Shown: positions 25,976 to 49,613 of the stretch, piece by piece
Position numbering within the stretch: position 1 is the stretch's first letter
How the letters are laid out: the number at the start of each line of letters is the position of its first letter
NCBI GenBank assembly: GCA_051047955.1
Contig: JBPGPT010000016.1
Location: forward strand, 124,001-188,000
DNA: 64,000 nucleotides
Origin: Cystobasidiomycetes sp. EMM_F5
Taxonomy: Eukaryota
Direction: 5' to 3'
Program-made: the position numbers and the translations under genes
The notes under the pieces: model-generated
What the model was told of the DNA's origin: nothing
The model's input: the letters and a program-made list of their open reading frames with translations, nothing else
Database searches by the model: none

Positions 25976-26113
25976 AAGCAAAGGGGATCTTTACGTCTTA
26001 TGCACACTTGCTACATCGTGGCTACCAAATACGAAAATGTTCTCGTTGCACCGATAACGGAATGCTACCTAATTACTAAACTGCGATCACTACATATTTC
26101 GTACTCCTGCTCA

Positions 26114-27939
26114 TTATGCTGATTCTTCGATTGCCTTGTCACTGCTTCCAACTAGTGAGGCTTTGGGTCGCGGACCGGACAGCTTTAAGAACGCTCCTGG
26201 AATGCACAGCAGATATGACCCGCAGACCAGCCCGACCATCACAAACCAGCCATTCTTCGTTCCCAAAGCTTCCAAGGCTTGACCTGCCACTATGGGGCCT
26301 ATGAAGCTTCCCACTGAATAGGCCATATTGAAAAGAGCGAAGGCGTGCGAATAGCCAAGTCCTTTGGTATCGTTGACGAGGTAAGTGAGATCGGCTGTGA
26401 TTGCAGGAAGTGCAAAAGTCGCACTGCCACCAACAAAGACCAGCACGACGATGAAGCCAGCTAATGGCATCATGTCGATGCATAAGAATGCTGTCGTCAC
26501 TGCTGCCCCTGACAGACTTGCTAAAGCTAATCGTTTGGGCCCGAACCGGTCGACAAGCGATCCTGCTACGGGGCTGAGAACGAGAGCCGGGACGGCACTT
26601 GCAATAAATATCAGACCTGCTTGAAGCGAATCGAGACCGTACCGCTGAGACGGTACCTGTAAGTACCCAAATTCACAATGTTGAGAAGCCACTTACTTGA
26701 TTCAAGCGCAAAGTCATTGCGGCGTCAAGTAGGCCGCCCATGTAGACGCCTAAGCTGAGTGAAATGGCCGAGGATACCAAGGCGCGCAGATTGACGAGCA
26801 GTGCCAGAAAGGCAGATAAATTGGTACTTTTGCCGCGATGTTGACCTTCTTCGTTACCATCCAAGGCAGCAGCTTCTGTGTCGGCAGCAGAGACAGGTCT
26901 TGGAATCCATCGCGACGCGCGGCCATTTTCAACGACTAGTAAGCGAAAGATGAAGTCTACGGCCACCTATTCCAGTTCTTTTTCTTCAGTCTTGATCTGT
27001 ACCCAGAAGATGAGTCGACAAACTCACGATTATAATGCAGAATATCCAAGGCGCGTAGTACCCCAACTTCTGATACAGAGCGCCCCCGATGGGCGGGCCA
27101 GCAAGGGCGCCCAGAGACAAACCCATCATCGCTTGCCCTGTCGACAACGCGATATCCGCTTCGGGCACCGAATCCGCCAATAATGCCATCCCGATAGTGA
27201 ATATGCCTGTCCCGCTGACGCCTTGTAGCACTCGCGAGACGACAAGCAGAGTGAACGAGGTAGAGAGCATAAACATGACGAGTGATCCAGCCATAAATAC
27301 TAGACCTGAACAGATACTCTAGTCGGCAGATTCATTAATAGGCGCATAAATGTGCCGGACATACAGACAAGTAGCGGAATCTGCCGATTCTTGATTCGTT
27401 CCCCTAGATATCCTATTGGCGGTGACGACACAATCAGACCTCCGCCATAAGCTGTTAAGGACGGCTGATTAGTATATCTCCATACGACCAAAGAGAAGCC
27501 TGCCTACCAGCTACTAACCATCCTGTTAAGGCGTTCACATTATCGTATCCCAGTTCTCGCAGCCGAAACGGAATGACAGGCGATGCAATTCCGTATACTG
27601 TCAGAATTTCGATTCAGTACGTATCCAGCGTAGAAGTAGAAATGCACACACTGCATAAGTCGACAAAAATACCATAACCGACGACGAAAGTGATGAAGTG
27701 TTTCTGGGATGGACATTAGACGAATCCGCTCTGCAGCTGTGCGCTGAAACGGCACTCACTGAGTTTCGCAATTGCAAAAAGAGCGGTCTTTTCCTTCTAT
27801 GTAATGTGAATATACTACGTAGAGATGTTGGTGCTGGCCACGCGTTGTCGGCGGCGGTCGGAATTGATTTCTTCCTGCTTTTCTCCTGCTCTCGAACGCC
27901 TTCTGAGTACTCCTTAACAAGGGAAGTGTTCTGTGACAT
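26114..27939 (-). CDS. Major facilitator superfamily transporter, multi-exon
   Basis: Motif A-like GYLGERIKNRQ and GSLVDRFGPKR; SRVLQGVSG and GALAGPPIGGALY; many TM segments. Confidence 0.85.
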
Positions 27940-44620: not shown

Positions 44621-47600
44621 ATGGCAGCATACTCCGAGGACCAGCTGATACACGCTCTGGCAGCGGCAGCTTCACCCAATCAGCTTGAACGAGACGCTGC
44701 ATTTCGCTATCTTTCAGAGCTATCTCCCCAGTCGGCTTTCCAATGGCATCTCGTACAGGCTTGCAGCACTCATGCATTGCCGTGGGAAGTGCGGTTGCAA
44801 GCAATTCTCTTCTTCAAGAATGGGCTACACAAATACTGGCGGAGAACTGGCAACCAGTGAGCGCCCTCCTGCAAAGTACCGTCGATACGCGCCGCTGATG
44901 GCCTGTGTTTTTGGGCAGTTCCGTTTCCGTTGAACACAAGGCGCTCATACGGCCCAGGTTGCTGCAGATGGTACACGAACAAGACAGCAAGGTGGGGAAG
45001 TGCCATCTTCGTGCGTTCCTCATATTCACGCGGTCCGCCGCTACAGGTTGCCAATGTAGTGGCGGAATGTATCGCTCGGATTGCTAGACTGGATTATGAC
45101 CGTGACTGGTATGAGGCTGTCATTCGCAATCCAGAAGCAGAAGCAGCTGCTGACTGCTTCGATATCCAGGCCTGATCTGTTTAGCACCTTGCTGACAAGC
45201 ATTGAGCATGCTATTCATGCGATTACGGCAAATCCTGGCGATTTACAAGCTCGACTTGTCCTTGACCGCGCCTTGCTTTACTGGCACGAAGCGACAAAGG
45301 TACTCTCCCAAAATAAAATGCTTCGCGGCAAGCAAATTATGGGCAGTGTAAGCTCCAACAGTAGATTCGGGCTGCGGGCGACTCGACCATTGACCCTGCT
45401 ATCAACAGTTGTGCGAAAGCGCCATGCCATTGTTGATTCAGCTGTATCGACTTCTGTTCTCTGCGGCGTGCTCTGCTCTTGAAGCGAGTCCACTGATAGA
45501 GATCGACCGAAATACGCCATCCGAGTCCGGCCTCGCTCTTCTGACGCTCAAAATCTTGAACAAGCTCATTGTGCATGGATGGGGAGGATCAGGCCTAGCA
45601 GGACAAGAAGCCAAGACCGCATTCGAAAGCCAACAGGCAGACTTCTTCGTCTCCACAGTAAACGATCTGTCGACTATAGTATCGTTACGCAAGGCTGCGG
45701 TACTAGAGGGTCGGATGGCGGCTCTCTCCGCGGAGGGCAACGTTGTTGCGTCGACAAATCGGCTCATGACGCGTTACGTTCGCTTTGCAAGAAGCCTTCT
45801 CATGCAAAATCATCGCGTCTTTCATCGTCTTGGAGTAACTCAGAGGCTGTGCGATGTGTGCTGGGGATGCGTAGCCGAAGCCGCGGAGGATATTTCCGTT
45901 AACATGAGCGGTAGGTAATCTGCCTTATTGCTGGTACACCCTGCTCATGCATTGTTTACCGCTGAAGACGACGAACGCTGTCTGTTTCCCGAAAAGTTCA
46001 TCATCAAGAGTCTTTTGCTCGTGAAATGCTGTTTCTCACAATACCCCGTGGCAGATCCGTGTAGGTGCGATTACCAGTGACATCCGTGTGTCGGCTGATC
46101 AGAAGGTATGCAGCCATTAAATCATCCGACTTTGCTATACGAGCCGCGCAATTGATAACTCACCGGATACTGCCATTGCGACCCAAAGATCTAGCTCGTT
46201 GGCAGGATGAGCCGGAAGAGTTCTTCTTGGAAGAGGAGGCCGAACAGAATCCTTCTCAATGGAAATTTGATCTAAGACCTGCTGCGGAAGCCTTCTTGCA
46301 AGATTTATTGCAGACTTCCTCCGATGAGTCTTATAGGTCTGTCATCATTCCCTCGATACTGGAGGCCAAAGCAAGACTACAATGTATGTTGCGGATAATC
46401 GTGTTCCTATCTTGGCTGAATCTAACGCTCGTATTGCTTCCAGCTGCCAATGGGACGGAGCAAGTGCTGCAAAAGGAGGCCATCTATACAGCATGTGGCC
46501 TGTCACCCACGGCTATGTCCGAGTATCTCGACTTCGGTCAGTGGATGCGGGACTCGCTTCTAGGCGAGGCAGGCACTTCCGATCAAGGGTAGGTGCAGTA
46601 TTCCGCATGCTGTTAATCGTGTTACCTTGATTGACATCCGGATCACAGCTCGCTCATCATCCGTCGGCGCATAGCATGGCTGATGGGTCGCTGGCTAAAT
46701 GAAGATTCTTCACCTGAGGGACAAGGGCAGTGCTACTCTGTCATGTGTCATCTCATGGGCAGAAATGACTCCACAGATTTGGTCACACGTCTGACAGCGG
46801 CTCAAGCGCTGACAGCCATGGAAACCTGGGTCGAAGACTCTGCTGCACTTGTGCCCTTCATCGCGCCCGTGCTACAATGTCTTGCAGATCTTATTCGAGA
46901 TACCGAATCTGCGGAGATCCATCTAAGACTCAACAAGACCTTAGCTGCCGTCGTCCAGCGTGCAGGTTCCGGGATCGCAGTCCACCTTGATTTGTGCATG
47001 CAGATTGTTCCCGTCTTGTGGCATTCAGCCGAAGCCGGCAGCGGGGCAGAACAGTTCAAGAGCGATCTTGTGTTGACGCTTGCAGGTCTGGTTAATGCGT
47101 TGCAGACAGGTTCACAGAGCCTGCACGCAACAGTGTGCCCCTTCATCGAGATGTCGTGTAATCCCGCGCATGTATGTAGCTCGTAACCCCCCTCCGCTAC
47201 TGTCGATGCTGACGAAGCAGGTAGGCAAATCACATATACATGCAGGACAACGGTTTGTCTCTATGGCGATCCATGCTGCGCTATGCCGAAAGCGCGTCCC
47301 CCGACTTACTTCAGCTGGCCCCCTTAGCGGTCACATTGCTAGATGGTGACGGTGACTCGACCAAGCTGGAAGTCATTTTGCGTGTCGTCGAGGGTTACTC
47401 AGTCCTGGCCCCAGAGGTCTTCTTACCCGTGAGCCTTGGATGGCCGAACGCAAAATCTTTCTGATGTGCTACTCTTGATACAGCCTCACGCAACGCTCAT
47501 CTTCGCTCGCATCGCTCATCATTTGGACCGGCTTGACGAGGCAAAGGCCGCGCGTCCGCTGATGCGTGTAGTAGACATGGTCATCGCATGCTCGTCCACC

Positions 47601-49175
47601 TCAACATGGGCAACAGCTTTAGGCGAATCCGGTCTTTTTTCCAGAATCATGGTTACCCTTCAATCCGATGTCAGTACTCTCTGCAGAAAATGTGTGCAAA
47701 GGCCATTCTACGTGAAGCTGATACACAACTTTCTGTGATTCGACAATAAATGCACACCGTGACCTGTACAATAGGCATCAGCAACGGTCGTAACGCGATA
47801 CCTTTGCACACTGGCCAGGGTGGCTATCGCAGATCACGACATCCTCCTGCAATTGTTGCGTCACACAGCGGAAGTTAATGGCTTACTTTATGAAGATCTC
47901 CTCACTAAACTCATTGCTCAATGGCTGAATCGCGTAGGTCTCAACTTGCTCAGATCCGGCAATATGCTAAGCAGGCTATTATATAGTATGATAATCAATC
48001 GCATTCGTCTGCGCGCAAGTTAGTCGCCCTCGCATTGACCAGCGTAGTACGTTCCACCGAGCCAATCATACTGGAAAGACTCGACGAAATTATGGGCGTC
48101 TGGCTGTCGGCGTTATCCGAGACCAAAGAGTCTGCAATGGGAGAGTCAGTACATTCCACATTTGACAATGTCGCCGTCGATAGTTGCGCTTGGGTGCCAG
48201 CGGTGTCTGAGCGGTACAGCTGCGAGCCACCGCCTACCCAGGATAGCGGATATGCATCAGCGACGAGCGAGTGTGGATGGACCGGCGACAGTAATAGCTT
48301 GGACTGGACCTCTGTCGACCAAACCTCACCGAGCTCGAGAGCTTCACCTTTGGATGATGATGATCCTCCATCTCCCTCAATTCGCAATGTCGACTATGCC
48401 TGGTGGCAGCACCAAAACCTTACGTATAACGAGACACCATCACGACCTCGCGTTTCCGTTGGTCACCCTGGCACCTTTTTCTCTTCCCACACTCGTTCCG
48501 ATGCCTTCCTCTCTGGTGGCTTCACCGCTGGCACCCCGCGGCTCGACGATCATTGGCCAAATGTAATTGAACCCGTGACTGACTTTTCGAACTTCTCTGC
48601 GACTACGCACTTTTCGACTGGTTCGTCCGATAATTCTGCACTGGATGCATCTGATCAATCTGGCGAAACCCTACACGCCGACAACTCTGTAAACAACGAC
48701 AATACTGTAAACTTTACTAACGACCATAACGATGACGATGACGCTGCATGGGGAATCTTTCACGTTCCGACCAATGCAAACAACTCCCACAATTCTGACG
48801 ATACCTCGCATTGTAGCGCCGACACATACTACGAGGAAGACTGGCGAATCGATGGCGAAGTGGAAGACGCTGGTGGACTAGGCTGGGAGGGAACGCTGGT
48901 GTGCAAAAGTCCCGAAGCCCAACGAAGCGCAGAGGTGTGCTATCAATTGCATATCAAGCCTTGATTCAACTAAGCTCTTTTCCACTCAGCTTCTGAAGCA
49001 TGACCCAGTGCATTGTATCAACACTACGCATGCCATCACGCAGGCAATGCACGATGCTGGCAACCTCAATGGAGGAGCTGCTGCCTTTGAGCAGAGATGG
49101 CTAGCAAGCATTGACATAAAAGTGCTGGCGGAACTCAACGACTACCTGAGCGGTCGAGCCGTGGGTGGAGACTAG
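44621..49175 (+). CDS. KAP120: Importin-beta family karyopherin, importin-11/Kap120-like, multi-exon
   Basis: IBN_N-like VRLQAILFFKNGLHKYWR, IARIARLDY..DWPDLF, DLARWQDEPEEF, LRPAAEA, LQKEAIY, IIRRRIAWLMGRW and a C-terminal DPVH motif. Confidence 0.85.
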
Positions 49176-49613
49176 GACAATTGAAGCAGTAATACAGCAC
49201 GATAGCGAGAAGCAGTGGTAGTTTCGCATACTTTTCGCTCTTAGAAGCAGTTTTCGCATATCGATAATTAGGATAATCAGTCATTTGGCAGTGTAGTAGT
49301 GCAGTCTACATGGTGCAACGCCAATCCACATCGCTCATGAGGGGTATGCTGAGACCTTGGGTCAGGTTGTCTTTCAATTTTTCTAGGCACGCAGAGGCGG
49401 GGAAATCATCAACTGCGTTGCTGATTGCCTAGCGCTCAAAGAGCTATGGAGACCAGTAATCTCCAGTGTACGCCCTTTGGCTTGGTAAAGTTTCTCGCTC
49501 AGAGCGATACCGGGCCTTTCGGTGCTTCAGAGCCGGCAGTCCAGGTTTGAAATTTGGAAGAAAATCAGCCAGGCCCGCTCTTCCCTCTCGCCAAAAGGAG
49601 CTACCCGGTCAAA

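Follow-up and report, generated by a model that had tools for sequence, protein, structure and literature searches.

A long translatable segment with an AG-free zone at an ancestral intron position in the KAP120/importin-11 gene of a cystobasidiomycete yeast

Introduction

Can one stretch of a fungal gene be maintained both as an intron and as coding sequence? The question is raised by a 672-nucleotide (nt) segment near the 3' end of the KAP120/importin-11 gene in the window, by which we mean the whole 64,000-nt stretch of Cystobasidiomycetes sp. EMM_F5 analysed here (contig JBPGPT010000016.1, positions 124,001 to 188,000 of the forward strand; all positions below count from the first letter of the window). 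We argue that the segment descends from an ancestral phase-2 intron which has expanded and become translatable, and that its spliced and retained forms are both viable, a reading to which we give a probability of about 0.6. The segment was first singled out by the original prediction, made from the letters of the window, which described it as a possible splicing switch under two simultaneous constraints: it is purged of competing acceptors and kept translatable. Protein-producing intron retention in fungi is rare and little understood, PTC7 being the textbook case.

Results

An open frame between intron-like boundaries

Re-reading the sequence confirmed the boundaries proposed for the segment, a GTCAGT donor at 48145 and a TTGTAG acceptor ending at 48816, as well as its length and the absence of an in-frame stop. 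The importin frame contains 0 stops in 223 complete codons, and 672 nt is a multiple of three (3n). The other frames of the segment contain 4 stops (+1), 20 stops (+2) and 5-7 stops (minus strand). The GT-AG intron pattern fits: the donor GTCAGT is reused at the intron that begins at 47670, and a CTGAC lies 17 nt before the TAG. Removal of the segment joins GA to C as an Asp codon and gives ...ESAMG-D-ADTYYEED, and at this junction the compact C-terminus foreseen on splicing matches the orthologues.

Two further observations concern the boundaries. An 8-mer at the donor, GTCAGTAC, is common to the segment and the annotated intron 47670-47774, which at 105 nt is the longest annotated intron of the gene. 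The additional proximal acceptor suggested earlier, GTACAG ending at 48219, is present as sequence, and the A of a CTGAG branch-like site at 48207 lies 8 nt upstream of its AG.

The AG-free zone

The original prediction had also reported a long run without AG dinucleotides upstream of the acceptor, and this run was recovered exactly: after the AG at 48432-48433 there is none until the acceptor AG itself, at 48815-48816. For none of the 16 dinucleotides does the window hold a longer run without it than this zone of 381 nt; next comes a CC-free run of 301 nt, whilst the second-longest AG-free run measures 171 nt. From base composition ~16.3 AG are expected in the zone, and of 200000 mononucleotide shuffles none lacked AG. 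CT, the opposite-strand counterpart of AG, occurs 36 times in the zone, indicating that the depletion is strand-specific.

The purge of AG operates at both synonymous sites and codon junctions. Given the amino acids of the zone and the codon usage of the gene, the probability of finding no AG is 2.8e-7; simulations on this basis predicted 12.5 AG, with a minimum of 3 in 5000. Across estimates, the probability of the run lies between 2.8e-7 and 1e-11. All 18 Ser codons in the zone are TCN; AGY codons account for 7 of 17 Ser in the first 96 codons of the segment and for 19 of 76 in the remaining coding sequence (CDS). Arg is always CGN (4/4), both Glu codons are GAA and the single Gln is CAA. 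None of the 17 zone codons that end in A precedes a G, though 42 of the 127 codons begin with G. Elsewhere in the CDS every 381-nt stretch holds 13-32 AG, and the first 288 nt of the segment hold 18, compared with 13.0 ± 2.9 simulated.

An AG exclusion zone (AGEZ) is defined as at least 100 nt free of AG up to the 3' splice site, beyond chance; here the run reaches 381 nt. The zone shows no unusual folding, with z=+0.23 against shuffled sequences and 58 of 100 shuffles folding as well.

Candidate donors within the zone were read by eye (GTTGGT at 48458, GTAATT at 48564, GTTCGT at 48621 and GTAAAC at 48690 and 48708). They were rejected as productive alternatives because the resulting introns are not 3n. 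The +1 frame is open for 172 codons (48048-48566), a stretch spanning the donor and the initial two thirds of the segment; low TA and the absence of TAG probably account for it, rather than a second gene. The second-longest AG-free run of the window, at 25983-26154, is of a kind expected ~0.05 times per 64 kb by our estimate from the AG frequency of the window. It ends in CAACTAG and contains branch-like ACTAA, GATAAC and CTGAT strings. It may belong to a further intron whose 3' part is long and AG-free, or it may be intergenic.

An ancestral intron position

We compared the segment with annotated orthologues that lack it (P0001, P0002, P0004 and P0005). In these proteins ~45-60 residues separate the ET.E and DPVH motifs, where the window would have ~270 residues if the segment were retained. 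Once spliced, the window sequence parallels ...ETESG-D-AELY of Leucosporidium, ...ETLEG-D-AELY of Sporobolomyces and ...ETNRG-D of Saccharomyces cerevisiae Kap120 (6fvb).

A profile-free search of 1.84 billion representatives returned 19 matches. They comprise the open reading frame (ORF) of the window itself, 11 relatives with both boundaries of the segment, one partial relative (P0012), one ambiguous sequence (P0020, open through a short stretch up to the C-terminus) and five outgroup ORFs. The five outgroup ORF calls are 57-75% identical to the annotated Kap120 of Leucosporidium or Sporobolomyces. They read ...G-E where the annotated proteins read ...G-D-A, and reach a stop after 0, 0, 13, 16 and 20 codons; two of them end right after G-E, the result expected from a donor GTAAGT or GTGAGT. 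That the outgroup ORFs break at this very point indicates that an ordinary, stop-containing phase-2 intron is ancestral here. Judged from these sequences, the segment is an ancestral intron which turned long and translatable in the clade whilst retaining its splice signals.

Open frame and boundaries in relatives

The 11 relatives are unannotated ORF calls on contigs of Logan, ENA and JGI, and one of them is also an annotated protein of a Cyphobasidiales metagenome-assembled genome (MAG). All 11 share the 3n length and open frame that the original prediction had proposed to look for in orthologues, and in these relatives and the window the insert is in frame and open over 149-257 codons. The partial P0012 stays open over no fewer than 112 codons. 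The last 45 residues encoded by the upstream exon show pairwise identities of 46-84%, with a median of 67%. Sequence and length of the inserts have turned over completely, yet all are open, whilst the outgroup introns carry stops; the frame is thus kept by selection rather than chance. Both halves of the proposed double constraint are thus borne out, the purge of acceptors beyond what the protein requires and the maintenance of a translatable frame.

Within the segment conservation is limited to the boundaries, where, as far as protein sequences can tell, it concerns codon class and not residue. After G-E/K, all 13 of 13 clade sequences continue with S-V, Y-V or C-V, that is, with a T-starting codon followed by GTN. 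This pattern implies a T at +2 and a GT at +5/+6 and fits G|GTNNGT. At its 3' end the insert has a Ser in 12/12, before A/S-D/E/L-x-Y, and the downstream exon reads S-A-D-x-Y-Y...G-W. Immediately before the boundary Ser, 10/12 sequences have C, Y, D, H or N and the other two have S or R. Codons of C, Y, D, H and N obligately end in a pyrimidine, as a YAG acceptor does; against a background of 0.257 the binomial P is 4.8e-5, a value that is overstated since related sequences are treated as independent.

Composition also shifts along the insert. Summed over the 12 inserts, residues with NAR codons (E, K and Q) number 127 of 1166 in the 5' halves and 73 of 1171 in the 3' halves, whilst those with NAY codons (D, N and H) rise from 134 to 311. 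Such a shift is the footprint expected of AG avoidance, which a functional poly-Asp tract could mimic.

Branch-like sites and a long-range helix

The four branch-like sites listed by the original prediction, at 48579, 48651, 48715 and 48795, are all present (Table 1). A fifth, TATAAC, stands at the 5' edge of the zone together with the most pyrimidine-rich stretch of the segment. The 3' tails of the 12 annotated introns, read by eye, mostly carry [CT]T[AG]A[CTG] ~10-18 nt before the AG.

The segment further contains a perfect 14-nt inverted repeat. A repeat of at least 14 nt arose in 1 of 2000 codon shuffles and 2 of 2000 mononucleotide shuffles, and among 189 tiles of the window only one holds such a repeat, the tile covering this region; the chance probability of the helix is ~1e-3. 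The two arms pair in both the minimum free energy and the centroid fold, and the fold of the whole segment has z=-2.07 (20 shuffles). The predicted helix encloses 16 of the 18 AGs in the 5' part of the segment; of the remaining two, one belongs to the donor and one lies 38 nt from it.

The insert as protein

As originally described, the insert is rich in D, S, T and N and free of Lys: 36 Ser, 21 Thr, 27 Asp and 19 Asn make up 103 of its 224 residues, and the inserts of relatives are similar in composition. AlphaFold2 (AF2), run on a 13-row alignment, predicted two helices in the upstream exon (predicted local distance difference test, pLDDT, 71-85 for ORF residues 11-50). The insert was predicted without secondary structure or fold (pLDDT 38-55), and a Pfam search of it returned no family.

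The speculation that the insert carries Atg8-interacting motifs was not supported. In all 12 relatives the alignment places a W opposite that of DDHWPNV, but a hydrophobic residue follows at +3 in only 1 of the 11 that were read, and BLASTP with the insert alone gives no similarity backing a conserved Atg8-type motif. MAFFT tends to align rare W residues whatever their homology. An AAWGIF hexamer and D-x-W motifs were likewise considered as conserved peptides and dropped, the insert-only BLASTP not being significant.

The host gene and its annotation

The window gene is, by sequence similarity, the KAP120/importin-11 of a cystobasidiomycete yeast. With the large exon as query, basidiomycete Kap120 proteins were recovered, that of Leucosporidium best (37% identity) and that of Sporobolomyces next (34%). 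The window ORF clusters with the NCBI protein KAL7006632.1 (P0025, 1152 aa), which is labelled Cystobasidiomycetes sp. EMM_F5 and equals 13 exons of the window exactly, with 12 annotated introns of 53-105 nt. For this protein, identical to the window exons, the database names a cultured isolate. The Pfam family TPR_IPO11 (PF25758) matches P0025 with E=9.6e-72 and 242.5 bits (cut-off 27), and the match is interrupted at residue 827, which is the position of the donor. S. cerevisiae Kap120 (PDB 6fvb_A) matches P0025 with E=2.1e-36 over query residues 296-851.

Two other protein searches were less productive. With the segment-spanning ORF as query a homologue search gave no matches, and with P0025 residues 600-1152 it gave one distant ascomycete match, low-complexity words probably crowding the relatives out.

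At the other end of the gene, the deposited P0025 probably lacks its true N-terminus, an exon opened by the ATG at 44621. P0025 begins at 44971 (MVHEQDSK), and Pfam finds no IBN_N domain in it. The proposed first exon (44621-44854) matches IBN_N with 19.7 bits and E=8.6e-4, under the curated cut-off of 21, and residues 11-133 of the Leucosporidium protein (P0001) align by tblastn to window positions 44645-45115. Intron 8 (47172-47245) has two in-frame acceptors 21 nt apart, downstream of a single CTGAC: AGGTAG ending at 47224 (53-nt intron) and ATGCAG ending at 47245 (74 nt, annotated). The tblastn alignment of the Leucosporidium protein begins as early as 47228, an argument for the upstream acceptor or for alternative use.

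The locus was also sought in public DNA. Contigs of four public DNA runs (X1, X2, X3 and X5) yielded seven pieces with no joints. Six of these, 60-270 letters long, are identical to the window, and the seventh is a 35-letter partial match with 5 other letters. DNA is contiguous across the donor in X1 (48141-48291) and X2 (47904-48173). The six identical pieces fall within window positions 47904-49200 at a depth of ~2 and come from four studies, one run being labelled a phyllosphere metagenome. The same strain, or one nearly identical to it, is therefore present at low abundance elsewhere.

Table 1. Positions of the KAP120 gene, the 672-nt segment and the elements within and around it
Feature	Position	Strand	Remarks
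KAP120/importin-11 gene	44621..49175	+	ATG 44621, stop 49173-49175; GenBank model only from 44971
Exon upstream of segment	47987..48144	+	ends ...WLSALSETKESAMG + GA; two helices of a HEAT-like repeat
In-frame stop-free segment, candidate translatable intron	48145..48816	+	annotated as exon in GenBank
Donor GTCAGT	48145..48150	+	phase 2 (GA|G)
Inverted repeat, 5' arm GGGTGCCAGCGGTG	48192..48205	+	14-nt perfect repeat
Possible proximal in-frame acceptor GTACAG	48214..48219	+	would give a 75-nt intron; seen as sequence
Branch-like TATAAC	48425..48430	+	putative branch A at 48429; last AG 3 nt downstream; role assigned from the AGEZ rule
AG-free zone	48434..48814	+	381 nt = 127 codons; flanked by a GAG codon and the acceptor AGC codon
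Most pyrimidine-rich stretch of segment	48445..48545	+	70-75% in 40-nt windows
Inverted repeat, 3' arm CACCGCTGGCACCC	48523..48536	+	pairs with 48192-48205
Branch-like CTGAC	48579..48583	+	233 nt upstream of acceptor AG
Branch-like CTGAT	48651..48655	+	161 nt upstream of acceptor AG
Branch-like TACTAAC	48715..48721	+	95 nt upstream of acceptor AG
Branch-like CTGAC	48795..48799	+	17 nt upstream of acceptor AG; other introns ~10-18 nt by eye
Acceptor TTGTAG	48811..48816	+	AG = first two bases of Ser codon AGC
Downstream exon	48817..48934	+	ADTYYEEDW...PEAQRSAE
Ordinary 55-nt intron	48935..48989	+	GTGTGC...CTAAG...CAG
Last exon	48990..49175	+	LLKHDPVH...GGD, then stop

Discussion

The reading that we favour is that spliced and retained forms of the segment are both viable. 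A KAP120 intron of ~55 nt would have been enlarged to ~450-770 nt in cystobasidiomycete yeasts. Its removal (GA|GTCAGT at 48145, TTGTAG|C at 48816) would restore the ancestral ...ET.E...G-D-A... loop, and its retention would add ~224 S/T/D/N-rich, Lys-free and disordered residues between two C-terminal HEAT-type repeats. From any branch point in the 3' half, the second catalytic step would meet only the ancestral in-frame AG, owing to the AG exclusion zone. The TATAAC and the pyrimidine-rich tract at the 5' edge of the zone may serve as one branch site, with five further consensus-like candidates downstream, and the 14-bp helix may hide the AGs of the AG-rich 5' part and shorten the intron.

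The segment appears to be held under two constraints at once, translatability in frame and a single clean splice pair, and the simplest account is that both mRNAs are made and translated. The gene thus probably makes two protein forms. The insert is probably a loop on the C-terminal arch that binds cargo, either tolerated there or modulatory. That both RNA forms are made, like the choice of branch point and the roles of helix and insert, we infer from sequence. The open frame may act as a fail-safe for a long intron that is spliced inefficiently, and this view is somewhat favoured over a regulated pair because the insert sequences are not conserved.

Several points weigh against this reading. 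The GenBank model of P0025 annotates the 672-nt segment as exonic, and the model of the Cyphobasidiales MAG (P0029) does likewise. A search of public sequencing runs gave five matching rows covering 5-14% of words, none of them RNA, and no splice junction was seen. The relatives are known as protein only, which hides whether E is encoded by GAG or GAA and Ser by AGY or TCN, and how much AG they contain; their locus DNA was not found in scans of metagenome, genome and viral contigs. The non-independence of related sequences also tempers the boundary statistics. BLASTP between inserts reached E<1e-3 in 2 of 66 pairs, neither involving the window, whose best match has E=0.63. Within the segment, the consensus CTGAC 17 nt from the acceptor is an equally good branch candidate, and with so proximal a site the long AG-free zone is unnecessary in the simplest model. 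Finally, the inverted repeat was found post hoc, and because the AG-free zone begins 89 nt upstream of the 3' arm, the helix fails to explain where the zone starts.

Splicing may instead have been lost at the base of the clade, leaving a constitutive disordered coding loop that expanded by slippage. The splice-like boundaries would then be relics or protein-level constraints, and the AG-free zone would have some other cause. The open frame of 3n length kept in 11/11 relatives would be expected of such a loop, its predicted disorder (pLDDT 38-55) is typical of tolerated loop inserts, and 672 nt is 6x any of the 12 annotated introns of the gene. Both existing gene models also treat the insert as exon, but they are ab initio. 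The EMM_F5 annotation came from funannotate 'predict', trained with BUSCO and run on an Illumina DNA assembly, RNA data being unmentioned (PMC12697161), and an exon call predicted from DNA alone says nothing on splicing. Loss of splicing leaves unexplained why AG is purged at synonymous sites and junctions of the 3' 381 nt and there alone (2.8e-7), why a T-starting codon and Val follow G-E in 13/13, why a residue with a pyrimidine-ending codon precedes the Ser in 10/12, and why a consensus CTGAC lies 17 nt before the AG. We consider this explanation unlikely.

It is also possible that removal and retention are set by condition or cell state, giving two functionally distinct importins, with control exerted through elements in the zone, the distant branch point or melting of the helix. 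Such a switch, which is what the original prediction had proposed, shares all the evidence for two viable forms and would give the significant long-range helix a role. In the available text of one study, the verified distant-branch-point exons were all alternatively spliced, with regulatory elements usually located in the zone (PMC1431707). The unconserved inserts, however, fit a merely tolerated insert better than a specific second function, and we regard regulation as an outside prospect. In its boldest form, a ~55-nt intron of an essential-type karyopherin would have become a regulated, dual-coded element of 450-770 nt across the class, equipped with an AG exclusion zone, a distant branch point and an AG-hiding helix. 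That scenario is doubtful; were it true, a fungus with short introns would be using scanning-type choice of the 3' splice site over hundreds of nucleotides.

That the segment is an ordinary intron, always removed, and owes its open frame and AG-free run to coincidence is very improbable and close to refuted. Stop-free in-frame introns do arise by chance, and fungal gene predictors often disagree on stopless 3n introns (according to the available part of PMC3898260). Yet 149-257 open codons in 11/11 relatives and the window, unalignable and of varying lengths, against 4-20 stops in other frames of the window segment, cannot be due to chance, and the AG-free run has the low probabilities given above.

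The locus offers a comparative record of how an ordinary intron turned into a long translatable one and persisted across deeply diverged yeasts. As the zone lies inside an ORF, selection against competing acceptors is readable as codon choice, which makes the locus a clean natural experiment on long-distance 3' splice-site choice in a genome whose introns are otherwise ~55 nt. Because the segment was called as exon ab initio, the protein sets of these yeasts may carry a wrong or single form of Kap120.

Comparison with known systems

Within the Kap120/importin-11 family the host gene is a clear member, and the segment is absent from the four annotated orthologues compared. In Saccharomyces and other Saccharomycotina, the PTC7 intron keeps the reading frame without a stop, and its unspliced mRNA is translated into a second protein form (Juneau et al. 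2009, via the available text of PMC7491326). The same text reports that its retention is conserved across species despite consensus splice signals. The KAP120 segment resembles it, so described, in being a fungal in-frame, stop-free candidate for a spliceosomal intron. The intron of PTC7, however, is short and codes for a defined transmembrane helix altering localisation, whereas the KAP120 segment is 672 nt long, unconserved in sequence and predicted to be disordered. For PTC7 both RNA forms have been demonstrated in the work covered by that text; the KAP120 case is known here from its sequence alone and adds a 381-nt AG-free zone.

Our literature searches, among the matches listed for exitron and fungi, gave none with a title or abstract on a fungal exitron, and among those listed for AG exclusion zone and yeast none describing such a zone in a fungal gene; no paper was found joining KAP120 with intron retention. 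Exitrons (exonic introns) were reportedly described in Arabidopsis and human by Marquez et al. in 2015, and an origin from coding sequence or by intron loss has been proposed for them. The likeness lies in a GT-AG-bounded, 3n and stop-free internal part of a coding sequence, the splicing of which removes a mostly disordered protein segment. The KAP120 segment differs in occupying an ancestral intron position. To our knowledge, descriptions of exitrons do not include an AG exclusion zone.

By contrast, such a zone is the hallmark of human exons with distant branch points, which have an AG-free zone up to the 3' splice site and normal AG density upstream (Gooding et al. 2006, PMC1431707, as far as its available text goes). 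There the branch site and pyrimidine tract lie at the 5' end of the zone, AGs within ~12-15 nt of the branch are bypassed, and the AGEZ of PTB exon 11 measures 381 (PMC1431707). The KAP120 zone is alike in size, in upstream AG density (18 in 288 nt), in its TATAAC with an AG at +3 and in the pyrimidine tract at its 5' edge. Human zones, in the same description, are non-coding mammalian intron, whereas the KAP120 zone is also an ORF, so that the purge is seen as synonymous codon choice. It differs further in belonging to a yeast gene with introns of 53-105 nt and in having a consensus branch site 17 nt from the acceptor as well.

Yeast introns with distant branch points offer a second mechanism. 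In S. cerevisiae, the COF1 and UBC13 introns use AG-masking stems, whilst human zones are unstructured (Gahura et al. 2011, the available part of PMC3239191), and the same article cites zipper stems in long yeast introns, that of RPS17B among them. The predicted 14-bp helix of KAP120 could act similarly, shortening the distance and masking 16 of the 18 AGs of the 5' part. As described there, the COF1 and UBC13 stems lie between branch point and 3' splice site and hold silent AGs; the 3' 381 nt of the KAP120 segment have no AG and no structure, and in this are of the human type. Taken together, the PTC7 intron is the nearest fungal precedent for the KAP120 segment, the exitron the nearest concept and the mammalian AG exclusion zone the nearest mechanism.

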